Positions 6,216 through 45,020 are shown, numbered from the stretch's first letter. The stretch is DNA of 64,000 bases from an uncultured Candidatus Saccharibacteria bacterium (GCA_964641225.1 CAZXKC010000001.1:23268-87267); one strand, 5' to 3'. Numbers and translations: made by a program. The notes: generated by a model not told the origin, from the letters alone.

Positions 6216-6226
6216 ATTTTTTACAT

Positions 6227-6299
6227 TCCGGAGTAGTTCAGTGGTAGAACGCCTCGCTGTTAACGAGGATGTCGTAGGTTCGATCCCTACCTCCGGAGC
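6227..6299 (+). tRNA. tRNA-Asn (anticodon GTT)
   Basis: Cloverleaf read directly: acceptor tccggag/ctccgga, D arm tagttcagtggtagaac, anticodon stem cctcg/cgagg with loop ctGTTaa, T arm ggttcgatccc. CCA is not encoded. Confidence 0.8.
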
Positions 6300-7768
6300 C
6301 CGATAGTTAAGTCAGCGGTAGAAAGGATGGTATTAAAGGGTTTTCGCAAGGAAAACACTAGCTTTTTGCCGTCTAGCGACGGGTTCTGAAGTAAGAAGTT
6401 CAAAAATTGCCGTTTTTCAGGCACATCAGAACTCTTAAATATCTCAAGTGCCCGTTTTGCTAGGTTGAATATAGTGTTTGCCGTGATGTAGAACTCTTCG
6501 TCAGCATCGGAATGAATACGCATATCAGTAAGCAGTTCGGCTTGGCGGTCCTTGAACTCGCGGAACTTCTTGTCATACATTTCAGCGGTAATACAGCCGT
6601 CCAGCTTGTCATTGTACATTTTGCTGATGCGGTCCTCTATCGTGTCGTATTCTTTTTTCAAGTTGGTCATACTGACCTTGTGAAATGATGCCTCGCTATT
6701 GCCCATAGACCGCAGCCCTTCGGTTATTTCTTTGATACGCTCATCTGGCATCTGAATGTTGCCCAAAATCTCGTAGATGGGTTTCAGGAGCTCGCTTTCA
6801 GGCACATACGCACGCTTACACTGCTTTCGGTAATTAGTGCAGCTGTAGTAAATAAATGTGCGTCCGCTCTTTTTTGTTTTCATTTCAGGGCTGACGCCAC
6901 AGCCACATTTTGCACATTTAATTAGGCCACGGAAAATGAACGGCTTAGCAGCGAATTGAAATGGCTTTTTGTTCCAACTCTTACGTACCTCTTCGCACTT
7001 CTCAAAAAGCTCTCTAGCAATCAGATTGCCGTAGTTATGTGTATTCTCTCGTCCTTTATATCGCATCAGGCCACAGCAGAAAGGGTCTTGCAAGATATGT
7101 GCGACCATACTGATTGATAATGGCGTATCTTGAGCACTTTTCAGGCCGAGCTTAAACATCGCTTTGCGAATGATGTGATGCGAGCTATTACCCGTTGCAT
7201 ACATCTCAAACATTTTTGCAACGAGTGGGCCATCGTGTTCATCTATCTCAATAGTATGCTTGCCATCAACGCTAACAACATTTTTGTATCCTCTAGGAGC
7301 TTTGCTCGGCCATTCGTGATTATCAAACTTCTGCGTTAAGCTACGCTTCACGTCATCTGATAAGCGATTAAGGTACTGCTTAGCAAGAAATACCTTTGCT
7401 TCCCACATAAACATCTGGTTGCCCGTGGCTTCTTTATTGATGAAGAAACCATCTTTGACGAAGTGGATTTCTAGTCCCTCGTCTCGTCGCATCACGTCTA
7501 GGTCTACGGCATCCTTAAAATTGCGGGTAGCTCGGTCTACGTTTTCGCAGAGCAGGACCTTGATATTGTGTTTGCGAATATAGGCGATGACTTCTTCAAA
7601 CTTCTTACGGATTTTTGGGCCAGCACTTTCCGAGAAGCAAAACTCTTTAACTACTTCAAAGCCCTTTTTGGCGGCATACTTTCGCAAACTATCAATCTGG
7701 GCGGGCAGCGAGCGTCCCGTTTCTTCCTGCTCTTTCGTTGATACTCTCGCTAGAATGATTGCTTTCAT
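6287..7768 (-). CDS. Large serine recombinase (resolvase/invertase-type catalytic domain, recombinase domain and zinc ribbon)
   Basis: N-terminal MKAIILARVSTKEQ...GRSLPAQ is the catalytic Ser motif. A long C-terminal extension carries a CxxC...C cluster. The 3' end overlaps the tRNA-Asn 3' end by ~12 nt on the opposite strand. Confidence 0.85.
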   Translation of the reverse strand: MKAIILARVSTKEQEETGRSLPAQIDSLRKYAAKKGFEVVKEFCFSESAGPKIRKKFEEVIAYIRKHNIKVLLCENVDRATRNFKDAVDLDVMRRDEGLEIHFVKDGFFINKEATGNQMFMWEAKVFLAKQYLNRLSDDVKRSLTQKFDNHEWPSKAPRGYKNVVSVDGKHTIEIDEHDGPLVAKMFEMYATGNSSHHIIRKAMFKLGLKSAQDTPLSISMVAHILQDPFCCGLMRYKGRENTHNYGNLIARELFEKCEEVRKSWNKKPFQFAAKPFIFRGLIKCAKCGCGVSPEMKTKKSGRTFIYYSCTNYRKQCKRAYVPESELLKPIYEILGNIQMPDERIKEITEGLRSMGNSEASFHKVSMTNLKKEYDTIEDRISKMYNDKLDGCITAEMYDKKFREFKDRQAELLTDMRIHSDADEEFYITANTIFNLAKRALEIFKSSDVPEKRQFLNFLLQNPSLDGKKLVFSLRKPFNTILSTADLTIGLRR

Positions 7769-7771
7769 AAT

Positions 7772-7948
7772 TTATTTTGTACTGACTTTTTTCAAGAACC
7801 CGTCAAACTCTTTTTTTCCGATACGAAACTCTTTGCCGATTTTATACGCTTTAAGCTTGCCTGCTTTGATATAGCGGTAGATTGTCATCACGTTAACGCG
7901 TAGTTTTGCTGCAAGTTCTTCTGCGAGATAAAAGTCGTGTTTAGTCAT
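7772..7948 (-). CDS. Helix-turn-helix excisionase/AlpA-like DNA-binding protein (58 aa), not in the ORF track because it is under 60 aa
   Basis: Reverse-strand translation gives MTKHDFYLAEELAAKLRVNVMTIYRYIKAGKLKAYKIGKEFRIGKKEFDGFLKKVSTK, a classic HTH_17/excisionase pattern. It lies directly upstream of the recombinase. Confidence 0.55.
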   Translation of the reverse strand: MTKHDFYLAEELAAKLRVNVMTIYRYIKAGKLKAYKIGKEFRIGKKEFDGFLKKVSTK

Positions 7949-8181
7949 AGCTTATTTGGTTTAATTATACTTTACAATGCTTTACAGTGCAAATCTAAGA
8001 AGTGGACAACCGTTTCCTTGCAATTCCCATTTTGATTAACCTAGAGCGTTGCCTGCTATATTCTAACGCTAGCTCTTTTTTCACGCCTTCCATAAAGAAA
8101 TCTACCGTCAAGACCTTCTTAGCTCGTTGTTGTTTTTTGTTCATAGTCGTCAATAATTATTGTTTAATGCTCCCATCCCTT

Positions 8182-9333
8182 CTATGGAGGGTGTCGCCAA
8201 GAGGACGGCGTTTCTATTGGACCAGCTCGTATGCGGAACGGCTTAAAACCATTAAGACTGTTGGCCACCTGCTTTACCCAGCCGTCATAGTTTTTATTTG
8301 AAATATCATCAATGAACTGAAGGTCTTTCGCGATGCGATACCACGTGCGGGTTGCTGCATACTTCTCAACGATTGCCCGCGTCTCTCGTATTCCTTCCTT
8401 GCTTAACGCTCGCAGCCCGACCAGATAGACTGCTTCCCTTGGTTTAATATTTGGTCTGTTTTTGAAAATCCGTTCCAAAGTTTTTTTTGGACTGCTGGCT
8501 ATATCAAACAGGAACATATTTTTGCCCGCTATAAGCTCCTGCCAATAGCTCAGTAGCACCTTCTGGCAAAGGGCCTCGTTGAACACATCCCTAAACGTTG
8601 GATTTTCCTTTAGGCCGAGCTGCTTCAGCACAGCATTGAGCTTTACCTTTTTCGCGAGCCGAACCTCAATCCGTAAAAGCTCTTTGTGCTCGCTCTTCGC
8701 TAGAACATCAAAGAGCGAACGCTGGACTTTATTTTGGTCCTTATCCATCGCTCGCTTCTCAGGCTTCTTGAGGTCTTGCACCTTGTCGTATATCACTAAT
8801 GAATGTGAGTTGGCATAAAACTGTAGCGATTGTCCGTCGTTGCGGAAGCTATCGCGGTTAAGGTCTAACTTCTTACTTACATCAACCTTATTTAATTCTT
8901 TAATAACAAAGGCCGACGTGTAGCCGTTGGTCAGTGGTATATTTTTTGAGGGATGGAATGCGGAGACCGAACCAGCTTCAATGTTCTTTTTCAGCACGTG
9001 TACGCCCATCTCAAAGAGTGCGTGTGTTAAGCACTCAACGACGGCATCAAAGTCGCTCTCTTGGACCTCATCCACGTTGTTGCCAAAGACCATTTTTGCG
9101 ACAGAAAACTCAATTTTGAGCGGTATTTGAATACCGTTTTCTGTCATCCTTTTCATCAGGGTCATTCGTGGCCGATACTTGCCCTTTTTCTTGTCCGAGG
9201 CGGTTGGGTTGTTCATACACTTCACTAGAAAATTACCTGAGCTATTAAGGATGTCGGCGTTAGGAGCAAACATATTCGGCTTAAGGATGCGATATTGGCC
9301 TTTAGGGATTGTGAGGATAACGGTGTCTAGCAT
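8182..9333 (-). CDS. Hypothetical protein (383 aa). Possibly the replication or mobilisation protein of the integrative element.
   Basis: Long ORF in island context next to the recombinase and excisionase. No motif was securely recognised, so the function is inference only. Confidence 0.45.
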   Translation of the reverse strand: MLDTVILTIPKGQYRILKPNMFAPNADILNSSGNFLVKCMNNPTASDKKKGKYRPRMTLMKRMTENGIQIPLKIEFSVAKMVFGNNVDEVQESDFDAVVECLTHALFEMGVHVLKKNIEAGSVSAFHPSKNIPLTNGYTSAFVIKELNKVDVSKKLDLNRDSFRNDGQSLQFYANSHSLVIYDKVQDLKKPEKRAMDKDQNKVQRSLFDVLAKSEHKELLRIEVRLAKKVKLNAVLKQLGLKENPTFRDVFNEALCQKVLLSYWQELIAGKNMFLFDIASSPKKTLERIFKNRPNIKPREAVYLVGLRALSKEGIRETRAIVEKYAATRTWYRIAKDLQFIDDISNKNYDGWVKQVANSLNGFKPFRIRAGPIETPSSWRHPP

Positions 9334-9539
9334 ACGGGTAAGTCATCGTCTGTTCGCTTGTATCGGTCAGGATTGACCCGCTTATCAACCTTTAACGCCA
9401 AAGCAAAGAAGCCGAGCAGGTTGCGGCGTTCATCTTCGGTTAGGTCTTTAACGGACCAATCCGTTGGATTTTTTTCGGGTAGAGCGGACATAAAATAGCC
9501 TGATGGGTTCAGGCTACTGTATGCCTCACTTAAGTTTGC

Positions 9540-10811
9540 TTAATTTTTGACTACGTACTTTGGATTGAGCCGAGCAGAATGCTTCGTAAGCTCAAAGAGA
9601 TTTTCAACTTGCGGGATGTGTAGTTTCACTTTTCGGTTGAACTGATAAATCGCGTTTTTGACTGCCGTGTCATCCACGTCGTCGCCTAAAATCATTTCGC
9701 TAATTTCGCCCAAACTCCAGTCCGAATAAGTATTTTTTGGGTTATCAAAAATGACCCTAAGGACTTCTTTTTGGACCTGTCCCTGTATCCGTATCTTGTG
9801 CTCTTTCGCATCTTGGTCAGTTAAAATCAACATCCCGCTCTGGGACTGAAAACTTAAGTTCAGCTTAATCTCTTCGCTTTCGGCGGTATTTATGGTATTG
9901 CTCGCCATCTTTTCTTGCCCCGTCAGCGAACTCAACGTTATTGGCGTTGAGTGGAACTTCACGTTCCAAAGCTCTTTGTCGTTCCAATTACGCACCTTCA
10001 GCCGTCCCTCTTGCTCCAAATACGAAAGCACTTTTATTACCTCAAAATCTTCATTGGCTAGCGAAGTGAAGGGTATGTTGACGCTACCATCAATAAGCGG
10101 AAGCTCTTTGACAAACTTGTAGAAGTTTTCTAACTGCTTAGAAAAATATGACCTTTTCTTTTTGTAAATGGGTGGTTTGTCAACAAAATCATCGGCAGCA
10201 AACGATGCTAAGAAATCAGCGATTTTTTCGTTGAGCTTTTTTGCTTCGGCATCAATAAAAGTGAGTTCAAACTCAATATGCGGTGCGGCAATGTCAGAGA
10301 TGTTACTCAAGCTTTTAGCTGCTTCGCTTAACGAGGCGAAATCAATTCTGTCTCTCATCCTCGGAAAATCATTTTTGAAATCAAACTTTTTTTCTTTGTC
10401 ATTGATAGCTGCGTCCAATCTTGCCTCAGACATTTTCTTTAAGTCATAAATCTCGCCGAAAACGTACGTATAGTAACCAACATTTTCATCAGTTGGATTT
10501 TCAGTCATCACTGCTTCTCTTACGGCTCGCTCCAATAAATCAGAGAGGTTGATAACGCTGAGCCGTCTTATCTTGCCTATACTAAAAACTTCAATCATAT
10601 CAAAGACCTGATGGAGCACGAGGTGCTCTACTGAGCCGTGGTCATTTGTGTCTGTAATTTCGCTCTTGATTTCATCAATCTTCCAATAATTTCCTTTCAA
10701 AAATTGGTCTAAAGTAAAAACGTTTTGCCCGCGGTAAAAGCCCTCTAGCAAAATGTGCAGGGCCAGCAGGTTCAAATCGCGATTGAAGTAGTCAAAATGG
10801 TCTTCTTCCAT
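9540..10811 (-). CDS. Hypothetical protein (423 aa)
   Basis: Long ORF with an acidic/coiled middle and a possible winged-helix-like C-terminus. No recognisable family. Confidence 0.45.
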   Translation of the reverse strand: MEEDHFDYFNRDLNLLALHILLEGFYRGQNVFTLDQFLKGNYWKIDEIKSEITDTNDHGSVEHLVLHQVFDMIEVFSIGKIRRLSVINLSDLLERAVREAVMTENPTDENVGYYTYVFGEIYDLKKMSEARLDAAINDKEKKFDFKNDFPRMRDRIDFASLSEAAKSLSNISDIAAPHIEFELTFIDAEAKKLNEKIADFLASFAADDFVDKPPIYKKKRSYFSKQLENFYKFVKELPLIDGSVNIPFTSLANEDFEVIKVLSYLEQEGRLKVRNWNDKELWNVKFHSTPITLSSLTGQEKMASNTINTAESEEIKLNLSFQSQSGMLILTDQDAKEHKIRIQGQVQKEVLRVIFDNPKNTYSDWSLGEISEMILGDDVDDTAVKNAIYQFNRKVKLHIPQVENLFELTKHSARLNPKYVVKN

Positions 10812-10920
10812 AGGTCTTATAGCTTACTTTAGTTTACATCCTATGACAATTCAAACGGGTCGCTTATATGACTTTGATTAACAAGAAAAAAGTGCTAAAT
10901 TATATGCACAACTTAATATG

Positions 10921-11100
10921 GCCTAACCCTCGTGGGCAACTGCGAGGTATGGCGTTAGAAACTGTTCAGGTACATTAAGCTCGTCGTCAGAGCACCTGAA
11001 CAGTCGTATTCCGAAAGGGGTACGGGTGGCCGTAAGGTCATCGCTGGCGGCGAGCTTTGTGCTTCGCTGCTTGCAAAGGCATTACAAAACTGTTCAGGTA
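10921..11100 (+). ncRNA. Candidate structured RNA / leader element, copy A, directly upstream of the C5-methyltransferase start codon
   Basis: Multi-hairpin element with GNRA loops: ctcgtgg-GCAA-ctgcgag, cgtattcc-GAAA-ggggtacg and ggcc-GTAA-ggtc, plus a long-range 10-bp stem actgttcagg/cctgaacagt. A paralogous copy at 23766-23900 preserves every helix with compensatory changes. Confidence 0.4.
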
Positions 11101-12098
11101 TGCCCAAAAAAACAAAAGGGCGGTCAAAGCACCGCGTCGTTTCTCTATTTGCAGGTTCAGGCGGTCTTGATTTAGGTTTTCATCAGGCGGGTTTTGATAT
11201 TATTTGGGCGAATGACTACGACCATTGGTCCTGCGAAACGCTCAAGAAAAACTTTCATCATACGGTTGTTGAGAAGAGCGTCGTTGATGTAACCAATGAC
11301 GAAGTGCCTGAATGCGATGTCATTTTGGGCGGTTTTCCTTGTCAGGATTTTTCTATGATTTGGAAGCGTGGCGGGATTACGACCGACCGCGGAAATCTCT
11401 ATAAGCAATTTGTCAGACTGGTGAAAGCCAAGAAGCCAAAACTTTTTATCGGCGAGAATGTCCGAGGTCTGCTGACTGCGAACGGCGGTAAGGCGTTGGA
11501 GCAGATAGTTAAAGATTTTGCCGAGGTCGGCTATGACGTTGAAGTGAACAAGGTGAACTTCGCAGACTATGGAGCTCCGCAACTACGGCAGCGGGTTTTG
11601 ATAATTGGAGTGCGTCGTGATTTGGGACGTAAATATAAGCTGCCACCTGCGACGCATACGCCTGATACTTACGTCTCTGCAAAACAAGCTTTGGCGGGCG
11701 TTGAGAAAGCCCTCTACAACAATGAGCACCTCAACGTGCAACCGAAAACAGTGCAAATGTTGAAGCTCATACCAGCAGGTGGGAACTTCACTTCAATCCC
11801 TAAAAACTCGCCTTATTACGTCAAAGGGATGATTAGCCACGTTTACCGCAGGTTGCACCCAGATAAGCCGTCTACGACGATTATAGCGGGCGGTGGAGGC
11901 GGTACGTGGGGCTATCACTACAAGGAGCATCGGCCTTTAACCAACCGCGAAAGAGCCCGTTTATTTGGTTACCCAGACGATTATATTTTCATCGGCTCTA
12001 CGACCGAGGTACGCCGACAAATCGGCAACTCTGTCCCGACTGCGGGCATACGGCCGATTGCCGAAAGCATCCGTAAGTTCCTAGACGAAACCAATTAA
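11100..12098 (+). CDS. DNA (cytosine-5)-methyltransferase
   Basis: Motif I FAGSGGLDLGF, PCQ motif (GGFPCQDFS) and ENVRGL motif. Confidence 0.9.
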   Translation: MPKKTKGRSKHRVVSLFAGSGGLDLGFHQAGFDIIWANDYDHWSCETLKKNFHHTVVEKSVVDVTNDEVPECDVILGGFPCQDFSMIWKRGGITTDRGNLYKQFVRLVKAKKPKLFIGENVRGLLTANGGKALEQIVKDFAEVGYDVEVNKVNFADYGAPQLRQRVLIIGVRRDLGRKYKLPPATHTPDTYVSAKQALAGVEKALYNNEHLNVQPKTVQMLKLIPAGGNFTSIPKNSPYYVKGMISHVYRRLHPDKPSTTIIAGGGGGTWGYHYKEHRPLTNRERARLFGYPDDYIFIGSTTEVRRQIGNSVPTAGIRPIAESIRKFLDETN

Positions 12099-12099
12099 A

Positions 12100-13119
12100 A
12101 TGATTTATTCAAACGATAAACATTTTGGTGGGCCGATGATGGAAACCGTGAAGCGTGAGATGCAGCACTCAAGCAATGTTGCGATTGCCAGCGGGTACGT
12201 TTCAGGTGATGTACTCGGTCAGTTTGAAAATGATTTTTATCGCATTGCTGAAAGCGGAGGTACTGTGAAGCTTTTGGTTGGAATGGCCTTCTACGAAGGG
12301 CTTACGGGCAAAAACTTACAACGACTTCAGACGATAGAAAACCGACTACGTACAACGAACGGTCAGAGCGGTATATTCGTATGTTACTCGCGACCATTCC
12401 ACGGAAAAATCTACAGGTTCAAAAATGGGGGCGACTTTTCAACCTATGTCGGCTCTTCTAACTTTTCGCGTAGCGGACTGTCTGAAAATCTTGAGTGCAC
12501 GGCCGAGGTCAAAGACACCGAAACAGAAGCGGGTGTTGAGGGTTATCTTGATTTCCTTTTTGCCCCTGAAAATGCCGTCTCGGTCCTGAAGGCGGACATT
12601 ACCGTACACGGGTCAAAAGAGTACCTTGAAAGGGTTTCACTACGGACGCTGGATGACCTGCAAAAGTACGACCCGAAAACGATTGATAAGAAGACGCTGC
12701 CAGAGTTTGATTATCCGCTTTCTCGCATCGTTGGCTCTGAAAAATCAAGCTTGAATGTTTATTTCGGCAAAGGGCGTTGGGCTCGTAGTACGGGCAAGGT
12801 TGCCCCGCGACCGTGGTACGAGGTTGAGCTCATCGCGTTAAAAGCGATGACAGAAAACCCTTTGTATCCAAAGGGCGATTTTAAGGCGTTTACTGACGAC
12901 GGGTATGTTATCCCAATGCGGACCAGTGGCGACTACTTTAAGAACATTCGGTCCAAAGGAAACCTACAAATCCTCGGTCAGTGGATTAAGGGCAAGCTTC
13001 AAAAAGCTAACGCTCTCATTCCTCTGACCCCTGTTACGCAGGAAACTTTGGACAAATACGGCAACGACACAATCCGTTTCTATAAAATACGCGATGGCGA
13101 GTATTATGTTGAGTTCTAA
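12100..13119 (+). CDS. PLD-family (HKD nuclease, NgoFVII-like) restriction endonuclease, cognate to the upstream methyltransferase
   Basis: HKD motif FHGKIYRF...YVGSSNFSRSG. Starts 2 nt after the methyltransferase stop. Confidence 0.65.
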   Translation: MIYSNDKHFGGPMMETVKREMQHSSNVAIASGYVSGDVLGQFENDFYRIAESGGTVKLLVGMAFYEGLTGKNLQRLQTIENRLRTTNGQSGIFVCYSRPFHGKIYRFKNGGDFSTYVGSSNFSRSGLSENLECTAEVKDTETEAGVEGYLDFLFAPENAVSVLKADITVHGSKEYLERVSLRTLDDLQKYDPKTIDKKTLPEFDYPLSRIVGSEKSSLNVYFGKGRWARSTGKVAPRPWYEVELIALKAMTENPLYPKGDFKAFTDDGYVIPMRTSGDYFKNIRSKGNLQILGQWIKGKLQKANALIPLTPVTQETLDKYGNDTIRFYKIRDGEYYVEF

Positions 13120-13130
13120 AATCTTGAGCT

Positions 13131-13319
13131 ATGATTTCTGAAAAAGCATTGGCAGAATATAAGGCAATTTATCGCAAGGAGTACGGCAAGGACATTTCAG
13201 ACGCCGAGGCGTTAGAGCAAGCCACGAACCTACTGAACTTAATGAACGTAGTTTATAGACCAGTAAAAAAGGAGTGGCTGACAGAGCTTGATGAAAAAGA
13301 AAAAGGCAAAGCAAAGTGA
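13131..13319 (+). CDS. Small hypothetical protein (62 aa)
   Basis: ORF only. Lys/Glu-rich. Confidence 0.3.
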   Translation: MISEKALAEYKAIYRKEYGKDISDAEALEQATNLLNLMNVVYRPVKKEWLTELDEKEKGKAK

Positions 13320-13475
13320 GTTAAAAATCATCTACGCGGAAGCCGAAGATATTTCCAGCGAAGAGGCACAGCGTAGGGTAGACGCAGCTTTTGACATTCT
13401 ATTTGAGGAGGTCCTTAAGCATAGGCATTAGTTTGCCTGAACGCTTTATATGCTGGTACACTTCAGCTAGATAAT

Positions 13476-13901
13476 ATGCTTAATTTCGGCGAAAAAGTTG
13501 AAGGCGTTGAGTATCGTGAGTTGCCCTGTGCTCGTGCTGTTATTCGTAATGACGAAGGCAAGTTTGCCTTTGTAGAAGTGAACGGGCAATACTTCTTGCT
13601 CGGTGGCGGGATGGAAAAAGACGAGACGCCAGAGCAAACGATTATCCGCGAATGTCTTGAAGAAGCAGGTGCTAGGGTTACCATTAGCCGAAAAATTGGA
13701 ACAGCTGGTGATTATCTATTCGCAAAAAAGGAGCAGGCGTATTTTCACAAAGTCGGCGAGTTTTTTGAAGCGAAAATAGAAGCGATAGTCCAAGATGGCG
13801 TTGAGACTGACCATAAGCTCGTATGGAGCACGCTGGAAGCAGCGAGGCCTTTTATTAAACAAAAAAGTCAGGAGTGGGCAGTTGAGCAACTTACTAAATA
13901 A
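13476..13901 (+). CDS. NUDIX hydrolase
   Basis: Nudix box GGGMEKDETPEQTIIRECLEEAG. Confidence 0.8.
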   Translation: MLNFGEKVEGVEYRELPCARAVIRNDEGKFAFVEVNGQYFLLGGGMEKDETPEQTIIRECLEEAGARVTISRKIGTAGDYLFAKKEQAYFHKVGEFFEAKIEAIVQDGVETDHKLVWSTLEAARPFIKQKSQEWAVEQLTK

Positions 13902-13904
13902 TTT

Positions 13905-14594
13905 ATGCAGCGACCCTACACAACACTCTTTATGCTCGTCTCGGTAGACGGCAAAATCTCTACGGGCGATACCGACCTATTGGATGTAGACAAAGATTTT
14001 CCGAAAATCGCAGGCCTCAAAGAGGGCTTGCAGCAGTATTACGATATTGAAAAGACAACCGATTTTTTCTCGCTAAACACGGGACGAGTTTTTGCGAAAG
14101 TCGGAATGAACACGAGAAAGGACGAACCAAAGCAGATACCCGTTACGTTCGTGCTCATTGATAACAAACCACACCTGACGAAGAATGGCGTCGTATATTT
14201 GTCCAAGAAAGCCCAGCGAACGCTTATTGTTACAACCAACCCCAAGCACGCAGCGTTGAAGCTTAATTTGCCCAATGTTGAGGTTATCAGCTACAAAGGC
14301 GAGGTTAATCTCAAGGACCTTTTTAAGAGGCTAGCGAAGAAATACGGGGCGAAGCGAATGACAATTCAATCTGGTGGAACGCTTAATGCAACACTAGTCC
14401 GTGAGGGGCTGATTGATAAGGTGCTGCTCGTTGTTGCCCCTGCGATGATTGGTGGAAAAAATACTTCTACGTTGATGGACGGACAGTCGCTACACTCAGC
14501 GAAGGAACTGGCGAAAATAAAAACGCTTAAGTTGATTAAGGCAGAGCCCCTTAAAAACTCATACCTACTTTTAGAGTATGAGGTTATCAAGTAG
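13905..14594 (+). CDS. RibD C-terminal / DHFR-like reductase family protein
   Basis: The N-terminal LFMLVSVDGKIS pattern and overall size match the RibD_C/dihydrofolate-reductase-like fold. Confidence 0.6.
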   Translation: MQRPYTTLFMLVSVDGKISTGDTDLLDVDKDFPKIAGLKEGLQQYYDIEKTTDFFSLNTGRVFAKVGMNTRKDEPKQIPVTFVLIDNKPHLTKNGVVYLSKKAQRTLIVTTNPKHAALKLNLPNVEVISYKGEVNLKDLFKRLAKKYGAKRMTIQSGGTLNATLVREGLIDKVLLVVAPAMIGGKNTSTLMDGQSLHSAKELAKIKTLKLIKAEPLKNSYLLLEYEVIK

Positions 14595-14610
14595 CACATC
14601 TAAACCAGTT

Positions 14611-15348
14611 ATGCCCGAAGAAGAAAAGAAAACACTATATATTTTCATAGATGAGTCGGGCAATTTTGATTTTTCGGAAAATGGAACGAAGTATTTTGCC
14701 CTTACCGCTGTTAGCAGCTTAACCCCGCTCAAATCAAGGGATGCTCTTTTAGCAAAAGTATACGCGACAAAATATAAGGGTTGGAATGAGGGGCGGGATG
14801 ATTATTATTTCCACGCGACCGAGGATAAACAGGAGGTCCGCGACTGGGTCTTCGCTGCTATCAAGCAGCTAGACGACATCGCAGTTGATGTCATAGTCGC
14901 ACAAAAAAATAAGGCAAATCCATCACTCTATATTGAGCGTGAATTGCAACCTAACTTTTCAGTAAAGACCGTCCGCTACGAAGAGAAGTTTTACGAAAAA
15001 ATCTCGCAGATGCTGCTACAATATATTTGCAACCGTTATCAAAACAAAGCAGATATTGGAAAGGTGGTAGTCATCCTCGGCTCTCTATTTACTGATAGAA
15101 AACGTGGCTATGTCCTTAAGAGCTTAAAGCAGTATTTGAGGGAGCATTTTTCTAAGCCCTCGTATATTTATTTCCACGACACATCATCTGACATTAACTG
15201 CCAGATTGCTGACTACTGCGGATGGGCTGCTTTCGTGAGAGCTGAACGAAACGAGCAAAGACCGTGGGCTGAAATTAAGGGCAAAGTGAAGAGCTGCTTT
15301 AACGTTTTTGATACTGGGACAACGGAGTATTACCAATATAAAAAATGA
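14611..15348 (+). CDS. DUF3800-family protein
   Basis: N-terminal LYIFIDESGNFDF is the DUF3800 signature. The Met at 14611 is preferred because the ORF start at 14578 overlaps the previous gene. Confidence 0.55.
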   Translation: MPEEEKKTLYIFIDESGNFDFSENGTKYFALTAVSSLTPLKSRDALLAKVYATKYKGWNEGRDDYYFHATEDKQEVRDWVFAAIKQLDDIAVDVIVAQKNKANPSLYIERELQPNFSVKTVRYEEKFYEKISQMLLQYICNRYQNKADIGKVVVILGSLFTDRKRGYVLKSLKQYLREHFSKPSYIYFHDTSSDINCQIADYCGWAAFVRAERNEQRPWAEIKGKVKSCFNVFDTGTTEYYQYKK

Positions 15349-15476
15349 CCAACCCGCCTATCCTTTCGGAAGAGCCCGAGGGCTCTTATCAGCGGGTTGG
15401 AACCTTTACTAGGAGTATACCTTATTTTCGCCAGAGAAGCAATCATTGTGTAAAAGGTCTATACTAATATAAACGT

Positions 15477-15716
15477 ATGAATATACCATTTCTTACAGAG
15501 CAGAAAGATGCAGCCTTAAAGGAATTAGGGGCAATATCAGGCAGCGAAAATCAAAAAAAGGAACGGATTTCAATCATTATCCAGTATCTTGCCTCGCTCC
15601 TTGAGCCAGATAGTTTTACCGAAGCTCAACGAGAGGATTTACGTAAACTATCCCTTGAGTTAGGTTTCAAGGAAGACACAGTATTTGCCGATTGGGTTAA
15701 GATTATCGCTCCTTAG
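15477..15716 (+). CDS. Small hypothetical protein (79 aa)
   Basis: ORF only. Confidence 0.35.
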   Translation: MNIPFLTEQKDAALKELGAISGSENQKKERISIIIQYLASLLEPDSFTEAQREDLRKLSLELGFKEDTVFADWVKIIAP

Positions 15717-15740
15717 CTAGGAGAGAAAAGTGATACGTCA

Positions 15741-16259
15741 ATGGGAAAACTTTTAATTATTTGTGGGCAAGAAGGTACTGGCAAATCCACGATTGCTAAA
15801 GCAATACTTCCTCATCTCAAAAATGGTGCTGCTTTTGATGCTGAGAATATCCTACAAGTAAACCCCTTTGAGTTTGATGAAAAGTTTAAGCAGCTAGCGA
15901 TTGATAATTCTGCCGTCCTTATCAACAGTTTTTTTGGACACGGCTGCGAAAGAGTAGTTGCTGGCAGCTTTATTGGCGATAGAGCGGGCTATGATGCCTT
16001 TAAGACGAAGCTGGAACATAGCCCAAAGGTTTTTATCGTTATGCTAGTCGCGTCTCAAGAAGTTCGCGACAAGAGGCGTATGGAAAGGGCAAAGCCGACT
16101 ACCAAAGAATGGAGGGACATAGCTGACGCAAAAGCCCCGAAAGATACGACGCTAGGTGCAGCTAAAGACGAGTATGACTATTACGAGATTGATAACAGTG
16201 GACTTACCGTTGATGAGACGATTGCCGAAGTCAAAAAGAAAATCCCTGATTTTTTCTAA
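15741..16259 (+). CDS. P-loop kinase (AAA_33 / chloramphenicol-phosphotransferase-like small-molecule kinase family)
   Basis: Walker A LIICGQEGTGKST at the N-terminus. Size of 172 aa. Confidence 0.6.
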   Translation: MGKLLIICGQEGTGKSTIAKAILPHLKNGAAFDAENILQVNPFEFDEKFKQLAIDNSAVLINSFFGHGCERVVAGSFIGDRAGYDAFKTKLEHSPKVFIVMLVASQEVRDKRRMERAKPTTKEWRDIADAKAPKDTTLGAAKDEYDYYEIDNSGLTVDETIAEVKKKIPDFF

Positions 16260-16264
16260 CTGAT

Positions 16265-17464
16265 ATGTCCTTAGAAGATAGCTACAATAAAATATATTCG
16301 CATAATGAAACTGTTTTTGGTGGCGAGCCAGAGCAAGTAGTTCGGAACGTGGTTAAATACCGTACAGCTGGCTCAGCCGTTGAATTAGGGGCTGGCGAAG
16401 GCAGAAACTCTTTATTTCTGGCAAGTAATGGTTTTGAAGTTTCGGCGTACGATATATCTAAAGTTGGCATAGGCAAAATTGCCAAGCGGGCAGCCGAGCT
16501 CAAACTTAATGTGCAAGCAGAGGTCGCAGATGTTCGTGCCTTAAATCTACAACGTAATTTTGACGTTGTAGCGTCCACGTATATGCTTCATCATCTCTCG
16601 CGAGAAGAAGCACTGGCGTTGGTCAAACGAATGCAAGAACATACCAACCCTGAAGGGTTAAATGCAATTACTGTTTTTACTAAAAGTGGCGATTTTTACA
16701 AAGGTAATCCCGAAACTGACCGATTTTATCCAGACGCAGGCGAATTAAAAAGTTTATATGCTGAATGGGATATTTTAGAGTATGAGGAGCTTGAAGTTCC
16801 AGCTGTTGATACAAAACCAGATGGAAGTCAGATGTCTAATGTGGCTGCCCGATTGCTGGCGAGGAAAATGCAAAAAAGCCCCATTGAACATAGTTCAAAT
16901 AATGAGAAGTCGGCAGCCTTTGAAACGCTCTATCAAGGTATGCTTGCTCAAGATGGAGGGTTTGTTGAGTATTCCTTACCGTACCCTAAATATGATTTTC
17001 TCAATTTCTTAGTAAGAGAAAAGGGCGTTCTTTTGCACGGTTCAAATCAGCCAGATATTCGCGAGCTTGAGCCAAAGCAGGCGAATTGTAAGTCAAAAAA
17101 GTTTGGCAATATGCAAGCAGTATATGCTACCCAAGACAGCATCCTACCACTTTTTTTCGCTGTTAGAGACAGGAGTAAGATGCGTGGCAGAACTGAAAGT
17201 GGTTACAGAGAAGAATATGTTGATGGTCAGCAGAAAAAAACATACGGCTTCGCGGTAAGTAGTCAGGCAGTGCTTAATTCAAATCCTTGGTTGGATGGCG
17301 TTGTCTATATTCTTCCAAGTGATAGTTTTGAACAGGGCACTGACGATGAAGGGCATCAAATTGATGAGTTCGTGAGCCGTACGCCAGTGAAAGCAATAGC
17401 AAGGTTGCGAGTTGGGCCAGAAGATTTCCCTTACTTAGATAAAGTTACCATAAAGGAGAGTTAG
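16265..17464 (+). CDS. SAM-dependent methyltransferase (TehB-like N-terminal domain) fused to a ~200-aa C-terminal domain of unknown function
   Basis: VELGAGEGRNSLFLASNGFEVSAYDIS is methyltransferase motif I, followed by an acidic motif II. The C-terminal half was not recognised. Confidence 0.55.
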   Translation: MSLEDSYNKIYSHNETVFGGEPEQVVRNVVKYRTAGSAVELGAGEGRNSLFLASNGFEVSAYDISKVGIGKIAKRAAELKLNVQAEVADVRALNLQRNFDVVASTYMLHHLSREEALALVKRMQEHTNPEGLNAITVFTKSGDFYKGNPETDRFYPDAGELKSLYAEWDILEYEELEVPAVDTKPDGSQMSNVAARLLARKMQKSPIEHSSNNEKSAAFETLYQGMLAQDGGFVEYSLPYPKYDFLNFLVREKGVLLHGSNQPDIRELEPKQANCKSKKFGNMQAVYATQDSILPLFFAVRDRSKMRGRTESGYREEYVDGQQKKTYGFAVSSQAVLNSNPWLDGVVYILPSDSFEQGTDDEGHQIDEFVSRTPVKAIARLRVGPEDFPYLDKVTIKES

Positions 17465-17479
17465 CCTAGAAACAGCCCT

Positions 17480-18538
17480 ATGAATTACACCGAGACAGAA
17501 GAATATCAGCGTCAAATCAAGGAGCAGTATAGCTCGCGGGTTAAAAAGTTCGCTCCAGTTGATGTTGAGAAGGTCCTGCATACTTTGGGCATTGAGGTCG
17601 GAAAGGATGACCTTAAGCCAATCACAAAGGGCAATATGAACGCTACCTACGTAGCACCCGCTTTGGTTGTAAAAATTAACGAGGATAAAAAGACGGCAGA
17701 CTATGCAGCGTATGTTGTAGCCTCGTCGCTAGCTGATAAGCATCCGATACCGAAGGTTTTGGCGTATGACCACTTTGATAAAACGGCATACGAAGTACTT
17801 GTAACGACCAGATTATCAGGTCAGACACTCATTGATACCATTTTTGACCTTGACCAAGCTGCTCGTGAGAAGCTCTTTAGCCAGATGCTTGATGTCGTAG
17901 ACGGACTTTTTACTATGAGGTTTGATAGCGTCGGGCACTTTCGTAACCCAGAGGAAAAGTTTGCAACATACAGCGAGTACCTTCGGCACAGCTTAATGCA
18001 ATCCGCTGACCAGATTAAACGGCAGAAAACGTGGGATGCCAGTGATATAGATAAAATCGTTGCCTATGCCAGCAAGCATCTCAACGTATTTGATGACGAG
18101 AAAGAGTGCACCTTTGTACATACGGATTTGCATATGGGCAATATCCTGCACGAAGGCGATAAGCTAACAGGCCTGATTGATTTTGACAGTGCCTTTCGTG
18201 GCCCACGCGTTGCCTCATTGCCGATGATTTTGGGGTTTGTCTTCAATCCGCAGCAATACACCGAGGGAAGCGACTACTTCCCGAAATACAAAGGGCAGCA
18301 ATTCCTGTATTTCCTGCCAATCCTGAAAGCTCGCTGGCCCGCTGTTTTCAGCGACCCGCAACTACTACGAAAACTCAACCTGCTTAATATCATTGAAAAT
18401 CTGGGCTGGGTTGCCGACAACTGGTCAAAAGAGTGGAACAAGCAACTTATTGATATGTTCTTCGCTACAGAAATTGATAAGGACCTTAAAGTTTCGTACT
18501 TCGGGCAGCGACTGGAAAGTGGTTCTTACGTCGGTTAA
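17480..18538 (+). CDS. Aminoglycoside/choline-kinase-fold phosphotransferase (APH family)
   Basis: Catalytic loop FVHTDLHMGNILH and the metal-binding IDFDSA motif. Confidence 0.75.
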   Translation: MNYTETEEYQRQIKEQYSSRVKKFAPVDVEKVLHTLGIEVGKDDLKPITKGNMNATYVAPALVVKINEDKKTADYAAYVVASSLADKHPIPKVLAYDHFDKTAYEVLVTTRLSGQTLIDTIFDLDQAAREKLFSQMLDVVDGLFTMRFDSVGHFRNPEEKFATYSEYLRHSLMQSADQIKRQKTWDASDIDKIVAYASKHLNVFDDEKECTFVHTDLHMGNILHEGDKLTGLIDFDSAFRGPRVASLPMILGFVFNPQQYTEGSDYFPKYKGQQFLYFLPILKARWPAVFSDPQLLRKLNLLNIIENLGWVADNWSKEWNKQLIDMFFATEIDKDLKVSYFGQRLESGSYVG

Positions 18539-18673
18539 CGCTTCAGGGGCATCAATTGCCGTAATCTCAAAAGACCGCTAAACTCAAGTTCTTCACGAAT
18601 ATGCTTCCAATCAAGGGTTCTAAACTTGTTCAATAGAGGGAGCCAATGTTTCTTGTGAATCCGACCCGTCTCT

Positions 18674-19735
18674 ATGAAAGACGCGCGTGTTAATCCTTCC
18701 GAGGCAATAGAGATATTTTCTCTATTAAAAATAGAGATTGAGGGTTATACTAATTCAGTGTATACCAAGAACTTATATCTCAGTTCGGTGACTCGCAGCC
18801 TTGTCATGCTTACTGATTATTTAAAGCTTTCCTCTTCGATATCGTTAACAGATGCGAATAAGCTTAGCGAAGATTTTTTTTGTGGTTTATTGAATCTTAT
18901 TTTTGGATACAATCTCCAGAACTTAAATTCCGGTAAGCAGAATTATCCCGCAATTGATCTTGGGGATAAAGACAGAAAACTTTCAGTGCAAGTTACTATT
19001 GATAATTCGAGCGAAAAAATCAAAAAAACACTTTCGATTTTTGATGCAAATAATGTTGGAAAAGAATACCAGCGTGTTATTGTGTTTATCGCGGGATATA
19101 AGCAGAAACGTTACAGCGTTGAATTTACAAGTTCGAACATAAATTTTTCAAAAGGTGATGATATTCTAGATCTGAATGATCTAGTTAAATCGATCGCAGC
19201 AAGCGATACTAAAAAAATTTGCGAAATTGATAAATATCTAGAGAAGGAGCTTGTTTCAAAAATTCAAGGATCCAATATTGATCCTACGCGTTTGCTGGAT
19301 GAAGATATTCGAGATATCTTAGGGGCAATATCGGATTTTATTGAGAATAAAAATGAAAAAGTCATTCACAATGAAACTGTTATCGTGCGAGATGAAAATT
19401 TTATTGAAAGAAAAAACGAATTAAATAATATATCGGAAATATTGTTCAATAACGAGATAACGCCCAGCCTAATTTATTCAGAGCAGGTCAAAAATTTTCT
19501 AATTAATCCTATCAATAAAAATCACTTAGCAAAATATCTGTCAATAACTCATAGGATCCAAGTCGATTACAAACGAGGGATGGCGGATCGAAAAATTGAA
19601 GGCGTCGAGTTCGTATTTAGAAAAATTTTCGAAGGTTTGACTGGGCAATATAATAATCGTCATTTAGACAGCACAAAAATCCTTATTGTGCTTCATAATA
19701 TGTATTTTAATTGCGATATCGGGCTGAATCCTTAG
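18674..19735 (+). CDS. Putative effector component of an ABC-three-component (ABC-3C) system, possibly SMEK-domain type
   Basis: 353 aa, AT-rich. First gene of a tightly packed three-gene operon. Domain assignment is from recollection of operon architecture and is tentative. Confidence 0.45.
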   Translation: MKDARVNPSEAIEIFSLLKIEIEGYTNSVYTKNLYLSSVTRSLVMLTDYLKLSSSISLTDANKLSEDFFCGLLNLIFGYNLQNLNSGKQNYPAIDLGDKDRKLSVQVTIDNSSEKIKKTLSIFDANNVGKEYQRVIVFIAGYKQKRYSVEFTSSNINFSKGDDILDLNDLVKSIAASDTKKICEIDKYLEKELVSKIQGSNIDPTRLLDEDIRDILGAISDFIENKNEKVIHNETVIVRDENFIERKNELNNISEILFNNEITPSLIYSEQVKNFLINPINKNHLAKYLSITHRIQVDYKRGMADRKIEGVEFVFRKIFEGLTGQYNNRHLDSTKILIVLHNMYFNCDIGLNP

Positions 19736-19739
19736 TTTT

Positions 19740-19976
19740 ATGCTCAAGCCGACAAAATATACTAATCTTCAAACCTCAGTAGTCTCTCTGGCAGCAGAGA
19801 TTTTGAAGATATTTTCTCATAACAAAGTTTTGCAGTATGATGATCTTTTCAGAAAAATCATTGATAGGAAAGGCAAAGAAGCGAAGGAGAACTTTCTTCT
19901 CGCTCTTAATTTCTTATTTTTGTTAGGCAAAATCGAGTATTACCAAAAGGGTGATTTATTTGAATACCGAAAATGA
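19740..19976 (+). CDS. ABC-3C middle component (small ~78-aa protein)
   Basis: Small ORF sandwiched between the effector and the ATPase. Its stop overlaps the next start in an ATGA junction. Confidence 0.45.
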   Translation: MLKPTKYTNLQTSVVSLAAEILKIFSHNKVLQYDDLFRKIIDRKGKEAKENFLLALNFLFLLGKIEYYQKGDLFEYRK

Positions 19977-21739: not shown

Positions 21740-21768
21740 AGTTACCCAATTCTTTAAATCAGAAATAT

Positions 21769-23121
21769 TTATGCCTGGATTCGCATGCAGATCAACTTGT
21801 CCTTGACCTCGATCTTGCTTTTGATGCAGGCAATAATCTCCCTCTTTTCGTCCTTTGTTCCGTTAAGAAGGGTATGCTTTACGTAGTTTCGGACATCGGC
21901 ATCGCACGTTGCCCGATCAAATTCAGTTTCACGGCCAAGCACCGTGTAGCTGAACTTTTTATAATGGTTGATTTCTTTCTCAATTTTTTCTTTGATCGCA
22001 ATTTCGTCTACGTCAATTTTATCAATCAGGCGGACAAGCTGCTGCGCTAGATCCTCCTCGCGGATCGGTTTCTGTTTACAGTAGCGGTCACGCGATTTGG
22101 TGCAGTGATAGTAGACATATCGATTCTGGCCACCATCTTTAAGCTTTTTGAATTTTTCCTCTGCTGTTATCCCTGACTCGCAGCCACCGCAATAAAACAA
22201 GCGGGTAAAGTTAAATTCATTCGTGCCAGGGTGCCGCCGTGCTGGCATAAGCATGTTAGCCCTCGCTTTTAGGTAGAGATCTTTATCAATAATCGGATCA
22301 TGCGCTCCCTTATACCATTTGCCGCTTCCAACAGGGTATTCGAACTCTCCGTAGTAGAAGGTATCTTGGAGAATTCTGAAAATCCCGCTCAATGCAATCC
22401 TTTTGCCGGATCGAGTCGTAATATTTTTTTCTTGCGTTAGCCAAGTGTATAAATCCCTGCCACTCGCATTTTCGTAAGCCACCTTCTCAAACATCTCCTT
22501 TACTATCGGTCCACGAATCGGATCAATCGTCATTTTCTTTTGACCCTTATCCGCAAACTTATCGTGCAGATACCCAATAGGTGGCAATCCTGGCCGCCAC
22601 CCCATTTCGCACTTTGCTCGTAGTCCTCGCTTCACATTTTCACCTTTATGGTCATTTTCCAATTTTGCCTGACTGCACAGAATCATAAGCAAGAATTTTT
22701 CGTTCGGTGAATTCGTAAATCTTTGGCCATGAGTTCTGATATCAACTAGAGCTTTTTGGTCCATCAGATCAACGATACTGCCAAGGTCGCCCGCATTTCT
22801 GCTAATACGAGATGGATCCCACGCGATAATACCGTTGAACATACCCTTGCGGATATCAACGATCATCTGTTGGAATACAGGTCGTTGTCCTGACTCTTTT
22901 GCCGAATGAGATTCGCGGCGCACCTCGGCAACCTCGATACCTTCGCGCGCTGCCATCGCTAACATTTCGTTGATCTGCGAATCAATGGAGAGAGCCTGTA
23001 ATTCGTCCTGTTCGCTAGATTTTCTGGCATACAGGCAATACCTGACGTTTATTTGAGGTTGTTCCTTCCTTTGGACGCCAACTCCCGGCACATCTTTTAA
23101 TTGTGTATTTTCCATATACAC
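21769..23121 (-). CDS. Large serine recombinase (paralog of the 30660-32258 gene)
   Basis: YARKSSEQDELQALSIDSQ catalytic motif. Shares FYYGEFEYP and YYHCTK motifs with the third recombinase. Confidence 0.85.
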   Translation of the reverse strand: MYMENTQLKDVPGVGVQRKEQPQINVRYCLYARKSSEQDELQALSIDSQINEMLAMAAREGIEVAEVRRESHSAKESGQRPVFQQMIVDIRKGMFNGIIAWDPSRISRNAGDLGSIVDLMDQKALVDIRTHGQRFTNSPNEKFLLMILCSQAKLENDHKGENVKRGLRAKCEMGWRPGLPPIGYLHDKFADKGQKKMTIDPIRGPIVKEMFEKVAYENASGRDLYTWLTQEKNITTRSGKRIALSGIFRILQDTFYYGEFEYPVGSGKWYKGAHDPIIDKDLYLKARANMLMPARRHPGTNEFNFTRLFYCGGCESGITAEEKFKKLKDGGQNRYVYYHCTKSRDRYCKQKPIREEDLAQQLVRLIDKIDVDEIAIKEKIEKEINHYKKFSYTVLGRETEFDRATCDADVRNYVKHTLLNGTKDEKREIIACIKSKIEVKDKLICMRIQA

Positions 23122-23616: not shown

Positions 23617-23765
23617 GGGGACGATAATACGCTGGAAACAAGCTATAGTCTAGAAATACTAGCTTGTTGGTAACTAAGGCTTCGCAAGCCTCCGATACTA
23701 AGCTAGGGTACTGGCAGCGCAACAGGTTTCGCGCTAAAATCTCATTAACAACTTAATAGGAAGAG

Positions 23766-23900
23766 CAGCCTAACCCGCGTGGGCAACCACGCGGTATGGC
23801 TCAAAATCGTTGAACACAAAAAGCTCCTAGTCAGAGCGTGTTCAACGTCGTACGCCGAAAGGTGTACGGGCCCGCAAGGGTATCTGGCTGGGGGCTTTTT
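23766..23900 (+). ncRNA. Candidate structured RNA / leader element, copy B, upstream of the zinc-ribbon membrane protein gene
   Basis: Same architecture as copy A: cgcgtgg-GCAA-ccacgcg, long-range stem cgttgaacac/gtgttcaacg, cgtacgcc-GAAA-ggtgtacg and gccc-GCAA-gggt. Ends in ggctgggggcttttt. Confidence 0.4.
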
Positions 23901-23937
23901 ATTTCCCTCAGTTAATTATTCATTAATCATTAACCGT

Positions 23938-24459
23938 ATGGATCAGAAAACTAAGCAGTGTCCGAAGTGCAAGATGGAGATTCCGTTCAAGGCAACAAGA
24001 TGCCCTCATTGCAGAGCTGGTCAGCACAGTAAATTAGCCGTCATATTGGCAGTTATTATTTTCGGGTCGCTCTTCATCCTTTTCCTCAGCGACATGTTCT
24101 CAAGTGATACGCCCGCCCCAACGCCAACTATTCCTGAGTTTGTAGAAACTGTTTCTGCGATACGACTCATGAATGCCTATAAGGAAAACGAAGTAGCTGC
24201 GGACAGCCAATATAAGGGCCACCTTGTCGAAGTTCACGGCACTATCGATACCATCGGGAAGGATATCTTGGACACACCGTATGTGAGCCTCAAAGCAAGC
24301 TACAATCAGTACGACTTTGGTACAGTACAGTGCATGTTCGACAAGAACAGCCAATCCCAGCTCGCCTCGCTTTCCAAGGGCACTGAAATCACCCTCCATG
24401 GACGCGTCAGTGGCAAGCTGGGAAATGTCATCGTTCGGGACTGCTCTATAGTCCCTTAA
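23938..24459 (+). CDS. Zinc-ribbon plus single-TM protein with a C-terminal OB-fold-like extracytoplasmic domain
   Basis: N-terminal CPKC...CPHC zinc ribbon, a TM helix (LAVILAVIIFGSLFILFL), then a ~120-aa domain. The Met at 23938 was chosen because the upstream part of the ORF is the RNA element. Confidence 0.5.
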   Translation: MDQKTKQCPKCKMEIPFKATRCPHCRAGQHSKLAVILAVIIFGSLFILFLSDMFSSDTPAPTPTIPEFVETVSAIRLMNAYKENEVAADSQYKGHLVEVHGTIDTIGKDILDTPYVSLKASYNQYDFGTVQCMFDKNSQSQLASLSKGTEITLHGRVSGKLGNVIVRDCSIVP

Positions 24460-44980: not shown

Positions 44981-45020
44981 CCCACTTTTCAGGAGTAATG
45001 ATCTATTTTAGATACTCAAG

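Follow-up and report, generated by a model that had tools for sequence, protein, structure and literature searches.

What is the role of a 14-nucleotide sequence that occurs twice ahead of a restriction-modification gene pair, the second time on the start codon itself? The window analysed here, a stretch of 64,000 nucleotides from an uncultured Candidatus Saccharibacteria bacterium, contains a gene for a C5 cytosine DNA methyltransferase (dcm), and the 14-mer AAACTGTTCAGGTA is found in it in two exact copies only, which form direct repeats 128 bp apart (X1 and X2 in Table 1). The final base of the second copy is the A of the ATG at 11100. An initial annotation had pointed out this arrangement and had seen in it a translational riboregulator, in which an internal segment can pair with either copy. 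Here, we follow up this proposal by comparing the locus with its relatives and by computing its alternative folds.

Results

The repeat

Both copies lie where the initial annotation had located them, and a third site is absent from the window even at ≤2 mismatches. The second copy does include the first base of dcm, the ATG at 11100 being the earliest possible start of the 332-aa ORF. The internal complement, CACCTGAACAG, can indeed pair over 11 bp with either copy, but its position had been given as 10994-11004 and has to be corrected to 10993-11003. The pairs extend from A10961 or A11089 to U10971 or U11099, with A10994-U11004 on the other strand (X' in Table 1); the A of the dcm ATG comes to lie opposite C10993 and is unpaired in X':X2. 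A Shine-Dalgarno-like AGG within X2 stands only about 1 nt from the ATG. In the window taken by itself, the repeat reaches only weak significance, as 100 shuffles gave a mean of 0.37 matches at ≤2 mismatches.

The host RNA

An Rfam scan of the window returned two copies of the LOOT RNA (RF03000), here called A and B, which both exceed the gathering score of 46.4 and span model positions 1-121, that is, the full model. The repeat belongs to copy A. In the cmscan alignment, both copies show the conserved LOOT helices together with CCUAA, G(C/U)AUGG and the A-rich linker. Across 113 loci, 80.5% of the cells in the LOOT helices are paired, as against 66% after shuffling and 37-50% with the partners slid. 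The scan gave no other match at the gathering threshold, nor any of meaning at E≤5; a sub-threshold SAM-II match upstream (E=0.58) was dismissed as meaningless. The LOOT motif stems from a survey of intergenic motifs (Weinberg et al., 2017; PMC5737381), whose main text does not discuss it. Our full-text literature search found LOOT mentioned only in this survey and in one structure-prediction benchmark, and no functional study.

To assess the family, relatives were collected by scanning one genome per species for a sequence pattern, which gave at least 119 loci (L001-L119), and metagenome loci were added. The pattern required CCGAAAGG in P4, and locus frequencies are therefore approximate. The metagenome variants L121, L135 and L139, which carry GGGGAAAC instead of CCGAAAGG in the P4 loop region, were missed by it, so the family is broader than the loci analysed. 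By the taxon labels as deposited, the listed loci come almost entirely from MAGs of Patescibacteria/CPR, labels that suggest the same origin for the window. Some lie in MAGs labelled Pacearchaeota or Gammaproteobacteria (L027, DAOSDI010000007.1; L016, L033, L040, L046, L047, L053 and others), labels which likely reflect mis-binning or mis-labelling of Patescibacteria contigs, or else hint at transfer. The same pattern found no match in the viral contigs of IMG/VR.

In Rfam, LOOT is typed as 'Gene; sRNA' and its model stops at P5. Past P5, however, the complementarity continues beyond the model: in all sequence classes, the apical-loop segment Y1 is complementary to a segment Y', behind which a U-rich tract follows. 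When 113 unique loci were aligned with MAFFT, without fitting to a structure, all nine aligned pairs of Y1:Y' (9/9) showed compensatory double changes, and 94% of the cells were paired. The helix is pseudoknotted with X1:X'. With 9-12 bp followed by UUUGUG or UUUUUUG, stem and tract have the form of an intrinsic terminator in all classes, although an atypical one, as about 55 nt (X', P4, P5) lie between the two strands of the stem; in copy A, a terminator-like site is predicted at 11041-11053, with the U-tract at 11056-11064 as its tail. As read from these alignments, LOOT is longer than its Rfam model, the addition being the pseudoknotted, terminator-like helix Y1:Y' with its U-tract.

Table 1. 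Coordinates of the features discussed in the text, in window positions
Feature	Position	Strand	Basis
Large serine recombinase of the copy A element	6287..7768	-	Pfam Resolvase, Recombinase, Zn_ribbon_recom
Putative LOOT-dcm promoter: -35 TTGATT (10874-79), 16-nt spacer, -10 TAAATT (10896-901)	10874..10901	+	inferred from sequence
Conserved 5' leader ACAACTTAATA, ACAAYTTAAT family motif	10908..10918	+	same in copies A and B
LOOT RNA copy A: P1, long hairpin X1:X', P4 with GAAA loop, P5	10920..11042	+	RF03000, 78.0 bits
X1, first 14-mer copy: A-rich linker and 5' arm of long hairpin	10959..10972	+	sequence, Rfam alignment, fold
Y1, GCUCGUCGUCAG, apical loop, 5' strand of Y1:Y'	10979..10990	+	complementarity, alignment covariation
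X', 3' arm CACCUGAACAGU, partner common to X1 and X2	10993..11004	+	sequence, fold energies
Y', CUGGCGGCGAGC, pairs with Y1 (pseudoknot, terminator-like stem) or Y2	11044..11055	+	complementarity, alignment
U-rich tract UUUGUGCUU, directly 3' of Y'	11056..11064	+	family conservation, T nearly invariant in alignment columns
Y2, GCUUCGCUGCUUGC, alternative downstream partner of Y'	11061..11074	+	MFE fold, family-wide excess
X2, second 14-mer copy, spans -13 to +1 of dcm start	11087..11100	+	sequence, comparison, energies
C5 cytosine DNA methyltransferase gene (dcm), 332 aa	11100..12098	+	PF00145, E=1.3e-78, full-length domain
NgoFVII-type restriction endonuclease gene	12100..13119	+	PF09565 and PF20731
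Large serine recombinase of the copy B element, divergent from LOOT copy B	21769..23121	-	recombinase cluster membership
LOOT RNA copy B, Rfam span	23767..23882	+	RF03000, 78.7 bits
LOOT copy B with Y' (23884-95) and U-tract (23896-904), no X2	23767..23904	+	Rfam, comparison

Promoters and downstream genes

Is LOOT a gene of its own, as its label has it? At nearly every listed locus, an ORF on the same strand begins 40-120 nt past the loop, in some cases within the U-tract, which makes LOOT a leader. In L046, L051, L010 and L012, the ATG lies inside or just past the U-tract; this leaves no room for a separate promoter, and the gene must be read from that of LOOT. Thus, LOOT does not qualify as a free-standing small RNA gene, a result that concerns the Rfam type label and not family membership. 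A TATAAT-like box is found 24-30 nt 5' of CCTAA across 117 listed loci, and about 10 nt past it many loci carry ACAAYTTAAT directly 5' of P1. This motif, whose counterpart in copy B lies at 23748-23758, probably comprises the first transcribed bases; it may serve as a pairing partner, as an initial transcribed sequence or as a site for a protein. A promoter consensus scan matched CTGGCA-18-TAAAAT at 23711-23740 for copy B; upstream of copy A it gave nothing above threshold, and the weak promoter in Table 1 was read from the sequence. A leader peptide starting at the AUG of G(C/U)AUGG was considered and rejected, as stops follow at once in relatives (L048: AUG GCA UAA).

Behind copy A, the methyltransferase gene ends in TAA at 12096-12098 and, after a single base, the endonuclease ATG follows at 12100, in agreement with the close succession described initially. 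A C-protein (HTH) gene was found neither among the large ORFs around the LOOT-dcm-endonuclease block that the Pfam scan covered nor in the LOOT-dcm interval; the short ORFs at 13129-13475, directly after the endonuclease gene, lie outside the scanned set. The only ORFs of at least 40 aa in 10811-11100 are 10955-11107 on the minus strand and 11026-11175 on the plus strand, which overlap and both fall within the LOOT leader. Among the ORFs scanned, the locus does not present the small HTH controller gene and C-box of a C-protein-controlled restriction-modification system. A gene for a DUF3800 protein (14578-15348) is located downstream of the restriction-modification genes. DUF3800 genes reportedly had associated RNA motifs of their own in the 2017 survey from which LOOT stems; no DUF3800-associated motif reaches the Rfam threshold in the window.

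Copy B leads a gene for a Zn-ribbon/tRNA_anti-like protein (23938-24459), with which a gene for a ParB-N/N6_N4 DNA methylase fusion (24910-26265, minus strand) converges. That this copy lacks the second partner, as had been noted, is borne out by the pairing of its initiation region with its own LOOT (z=-0.8); near its start there is only a weak resemblance, AATCATTAACC at 23925-35 versus AATCGTTGAAC. A search of the window for trans targets of the copy B 5' arm, CTCGTTGAACAC, gave only a site with one mismatch at 8575-8586, which overlaps a 79-aa ORF with a TTG start (8579-8818) inside a Phage_CRI-like gene; this match is probably due to chance.

Recurrence of X2 in the LOOT family

Exact repeats of at least 10 nt between LOOT and its flanks cluster at a single site: they involve the X1 arm, often including the preceding AAAAC, and recur downstream, 60-90 nt past the GAAA loop. 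The 11-nt complement of X' recurs at ≥10/11 positions, 62-90 nt downstream of the GAAA loop, in 22 of the 97 unique loci listed; cross-locus controls yielded 10 in 9312 (0.1%). A repeat arising by chance could appeal to the shuffled windows, 7/100 of which have at least two matches at ≤2 mismatches. However, a recurrence at a fixed position throughout the family, about 200-fold above the cross-locus controls, already refutes this explanation, whose probability we regard as practically nil. It is this comparison, and not the window, that indicates that the repeat is more than a coincidence.

At every locus listed as carrying it (X2+), X2 ends 0-6 nt 5' of the first ATG of the downstream ORF, start codons being assigned by a simple ORF rule; examples are aaaaCCAGTCACGGTtATG, aaaaCCGTTCAGAGTATG and aaaaCCCACTACAGGtATG. 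When the initiation region, from -18 to +4, is paired with the entire LOOT in RNAduplex, 22 of the 88 unique loci listed reach z<-3, and 20 of these 22 land exactly on X', the remaining loci showing nothing. The X2+ loci comprise at least 25 different X sequences; the duplicated arm, which the initial annotation had suggested looking for in homologous loci, is found there and always abuts the start codon. Where X1 differs from the complement of X' (L028, L030, L045, L057), X2 follows X', and in L040 and L073 it keeps a G.U pair. X2 tracks X' rather than X1, as part of a three-way covariation, which speaks for selection acting on the ability to pair with X' and against selection for identity with X1. 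Apparent matches in L014, L026, L086 and L091 were dropped as GU-driven false positives. The X helix is poorly aligned by MAFFT (64% paired), and all statistics on X1, X' and X2 were taken from anchored, permutation-controlled scripts.

LOOT thus falls into two classes, with X2 in approximately 25% and without it in approximately 75% of the loci listed. As about three quarters of the loci, copy B included, lack it, X2 is an add-on and does not represent what LOOT does at its core. The stretch from the U-tract to the ATG holds, in addition, an excess of complementarity to Y', in a segment called Y2: in 37 of 106 listed loci it reaches z<-2 (Wilcoxon p=1e-12), and the signal is stronger with X2 than without it (mean z of -2.05 and -1.22, p=0.008). 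The order of the elements on the RNA is X1, Y1, X', P4, P5, Y', U-tract, Y2, X2, AUG. In this order, the 5' pair X1 and Y1 and the 3' pair Y2 and X2 are predicted rivals for the same central strands.

Association with methyltransferase genes

In the loci listed, X2 is strongly linked to DNA methyltransferase genes. By sequence-cluster membership, the first gene encodes a DNA methyltransferase in about 10 of 26 X2+ loci and in 0 of 59 loci without X2 (Fisher p=1.7e-6), and the enzymes of the X2+ loci belong to three unrelated families: N6_N4_Mtase, Eco57I-type and C5. Among the first genes of loci without X2 (n=80), no DNA methyltransferase family is found in the best 25 of 32 matched Pfam families, seven single-member families being left out of this check. 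Their cargo consists of Zn-ribbon membrane proteins (of the copy B type), Ltp lipoproteins, nucleases, DndB and similar genes. Taken over both classes, the first genes are mixed (Zn-ribbon membrane proteins, Ltp lipoproteins, nucleases, methyltransferases and many unknowns), which is not the functionally coherent gene set of a riboswitch.

A metagenome scan with the dcm protein produced 80 loci at 60-73% identity, seven of which have a LOOT nearby. L168 (63% identity), the one dcm homologue in this set to have its LOOT directly upstream, carries X2 in a different sequence: its X1 is CCGTCCAAGGC and its start codon carries aaaaCCGTCCAAGGCtATG. Thus, no direct homologue of copy A without the downstream repeat, of the kind that the initial annotation had envisaged as counter-evidence, came to light. 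The other LOOTs near dcm homologues are X2+ in L121 and L135/136, and without X2 in L132 and L139/140.

Mobile-element context

The window contains two serine-recombinase elements in tandem beside a tRNA-Asn gene (6226-6301), with both recombinase genes lying within 6226-23121. The recombinase of the copy A element adjoins this tRNA, its ORF overlapping the tRNA 3' end, and both recombinases fall into the recombinase cluster associated with LOOT. By clustering of neighbouring ORFs, a large serine recombinase is found near LOOT in 47 listed loci, mostly upstream and divergent; of the 73 listed loci whose upstream sequence extends to 2.5 kb or more, 32 have it. A DUF5659 protein, an HTH protein and a Toprim primase also recur in the neighbourhood. 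In Patescibacteria, LOOT is the leader that lies next to the promoter of the cargo genes of serine-recombinase mobile elements. The proteins encoded upstream of copies A and B (423 aa and 450 aa) show no homology to each other.

Could the repeat be a scar at the DNA level, left by a target-site duplication, a recombinase site or a local duplication, and have no function in RNA? Its location within a mobile element and the exactness of the direct repeats at their distance of 128 bp would be in keeping with such an origin. However, the conserved motif begins 5' of X1, with P1, so that X1 and X2 bound no unit; X2 follows the complement of X' where this differs from X1; and at least 25 different sequences all occur beside an ATG. 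To our knowledge, long direct repeats are not among the products of large serine recombinases, and the tRNA-end repeat is absent from the window, as no second copy of the tRNA 3' end exists anywhere in it. An attachment site of the recombinase was rejected also because LOOT lies 0.15-3 kb from the recombinase, at its start side; the presumed integration junction, the tRNA, is at the opposite end of the recombinase gene. A target-site duplication or MITE was rejected as P1 stands outside the repeat and X' would have to match the "target". A scar is, all told, highly improbable.

Several further features of the region were recorded. The distal end of the first element carries a defence-type-looking module, composed of genes for a SMEK/ABC-3C C-terminal-domain protein (18674-19735) and a DUF2326 protein (19973-21739). 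Three 46-nt direct repeats (…GCAGGTTCTAATCTCCTTCATCRGCCGGAGC…) of 78-100% identity occur at 44014-44059, 45006-45051 and 46671-46716, with a spacing of 1.0 and 1.7 kb, and may be repeated attachment-site or tRNA-end-like fragments. An ORF of 2543 aa (36018-43649) has an internal 269-nt repeat (38898, 41508) of 72% identity.

Energetics of the alternative folds

The unconstrained minimum free energy of 10920-11130 is -89.2 kcal/mol (z=-5.95), in a fold that uses X1:X' (fold A). Forcing X':X2 (fold B) yields -87.9 kcal/mol and a four-way junction with P4, P5 and a Y':Y2 hairpin, and the ensemble probabilities of the two pairings are about 0.74 and 0.26. The ddG of the X2+ loci (n=25) spans -5 to +12 kcal/mol, its median being +2.2 kcal/mol. 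All these energies were computed without the Y1:Y' pseudoknot, which could lock fold A. Within this model, the two folds of the copy A leader are nearly iso-energetic, an outcome in line with the free-energy check foreseen in the initial annotation. As X1:X' is the first to form in transcription, it may be kinetically trapped.

The well-formed four-way junction of fold B is also what would be expected if X':X2 were a constitutive structural or processing helix without regulatory role, marking a cleavage site between LOOT and the mRNA or protecting the mRNA 5' end. Moreover, the A-rich tract is duplicated along with X, suggesting that the same tertiary context is rebuilt. On the other side, X1:X', which the Rfam model includes, is conserved throughout the LOOT loci, and it and X':X2 are mutually exclusive and nearly iso-energetic. 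A duplex of 11 bp is short for RNase III, and the exact position of X2 on the initiation region would be left unexplained. We therefore think a constitutive helix quite unlikely.

Discussion

What does the leader do, then? From the anatomy, covariation, energetics, start-codon placement and methyltransferase association described above, we infer that fold B would repress translation and that transcription could terminate at the U-tract, and we can name candidates for what shifts the balance. The copy A leader would be the 5' untranslated region of the dcm-endonuclease operon, read from its own promoter in an integrated serine-recombinase element. In fold A, X' would pair with X1 and close the LOOT hairpin, so that X2 and the start codon are single-stranded; Y1 would then be free to pair with Y', forming the terminator-like helix ahead of the U-tract. 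Fold B would be accessible only to transcripts that read past the U-tract, where Y':Y2 and X':X2 could form, close the four-way junction and hide the methyltransferase start site from -11 to -1. With two folds of almost the same calculated energy, the leader could act as a bistable switch. It would set the translatable share of the read-through mRNA and, via translational coupling, the amount of the restriction enzyme as well; the Y1:Y' helix may add a transcriptional layer. Possible triggers are the kinetics of co-transcriptional folding, a factor binding the conserved LOOT core, or a short LOOT RNA acting in trans.

Thus, the 14-mer repeat is probably a built-in translation switch, and we consider it reasonably probable that it works in cis, as a bistable element governing dcm-endonuclease translation. 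The translational riboregulator proposed initially thereby gains computational support, from the fold energies and from the recurrence of the arrangement in other LOOT loci. Beyond the initial annotation go the identification of the element as LOOT, the Y1:Y' helix with its alternative partner Y2, the location in serine-recombinase elements and the specific link with methyltransferase genes. For the orphan LOOT motif, filed so far as a small RNA without a proposed function, this provides a testable functional hypothesis, and for organisms with very few known regulators a hypothesis for restriction-modification control. The motif family was already known; new are its extension, its genomic context and the regulatory add-on X2, which suggest a revision of the LOOT model and type label in Rfam.

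How does this leader relate to known systems? With the LOOT family as modelled in Rfam, copies A and B share P1, the long hairpin, the GAAA-loop hairpin and P5; they differ from it in the extension by Y1:Y' and the U-tract, the close same-strand ORF and the serine-recombinase context, and about a quarter of the loci in Y2 and X2. Restriction-modification operons are known to be controlled by C proteins, antisense RNAs and autoregulation by the methyltransferase. What we propose here has in common with these a tight control of methyltransferase and endonuclease expression after acquisition of a mobile unit; it is unlike them in employing a structured cis leader, one that is also common to cargo genes other than restriction genes.

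A second parallel is offered by translational riboswitch platforms such as that of the add adenine riboswitch, in which the 3' strand of the closing helix has a choice between a partner inside the structured domain and the initiation region, two states near in energy. The copy A leader resembles these in the choice of partner for its 3' strand and in its close energies, and the predicted sets X1/X'/X2 and Y1/Y'/Y2 have the mutually exclusive pairing of an expression platform. The LOOT alignment also shows conserved junction nucleotides, which do not point to any ligand. However, the switching helix of LOOT is hypervariable and 11 bp long, most members lack the platform, and the downstream genes are heterogeneous, all unlike riboswitches of the add type.

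A likeness in layout exists to leader RNAs of other mobile elements. The CI RNA of P4 (seqA-seqB-seqC) and the C4 RNA of P1/P7 have an internal segment complementary to an upstream and a downstream copy in one transcript, and it is through the downstream target that the operon's first genes are controlled (PMC4825925, PMC8198154). The LOOT leader has the same layout, while showing no homology to C4 or CI in sequence or structure, LOOT being its only Rfam match. The P4 and P1/P7 RNAs undergo processing by RNase P, and their main effect is exerted in trans, either on the termination of transcription or on the translation of icd; their hosts are enterobacteria instead of Patescibacteria. In the Gifsy-1 prophage, the RNA IsrK ends at a leaky terminator; transcripts that read through it are mRNAs silenced by their structure, and to be translated they need an alternative pairing with sequences of the short form (PMC4825925). 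IsrK is unrelated to LOOT in sequence, and its short RNA activates in trans.

These precedents raise the alternative that LOOT is a trans-acting antisense RNA of the immunity type: a terminated RNA of about 150 nt would pair via X' (or X1) with read-through mRNAs and repress or activate the mRNAs of the same element, the hypervariable X helix serving as an address that prevents cross-talk between co-resident elements. The conserved terminator-like helix Y1:Y' with its U-tract is consistent with such an RNA. So is the divergence of X between the two elements of the window, between the pair on one contig (L085) and between the pair on one chromosome (L053, L064, OZ246416.1). The succession of upstream copy, complement and downstream copy corresponds to the seqA/seqC arrangement of P4 CI (PMC4825925); a C4 target that overlaps the icd region of P1 has been described (PMC8198154), and the short and long isoforms of IsrK are a further precedent. 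Against this, X' would be fully paired with X1 in the terminated RNA, in an 11-bp hairpin with no obvious toehold; the cis partner is always nearer than the trans partner; and there is no Rfam similarity to C4 or other antisense families. Sequence alone does not separate the two modes of action, and we take the one in trans to be rather unlikely.

The switch acting in cis thus remains the reading we prefer for copy A. A broader one, speculative and in our estimate unlikely, would combine both modes: LOOT would be a programmable immunity or addressing RNA of the widespread serine-recombinase elements of Patescibacteria, with the hypervariable X as its address. By way of the copy on the start site of the first cargo gene, each element would govern its restriction-modification or other cargo at the post-transcriptional level, in cis and in trans, and the address would also set it apart from co-resident relatives. 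By analogy, such an RNA may be the functional counterpart, independently evolved in the candidate phyla radiation, of the heteroimmunity systems built on P1/P7 C4 and P4 CI.
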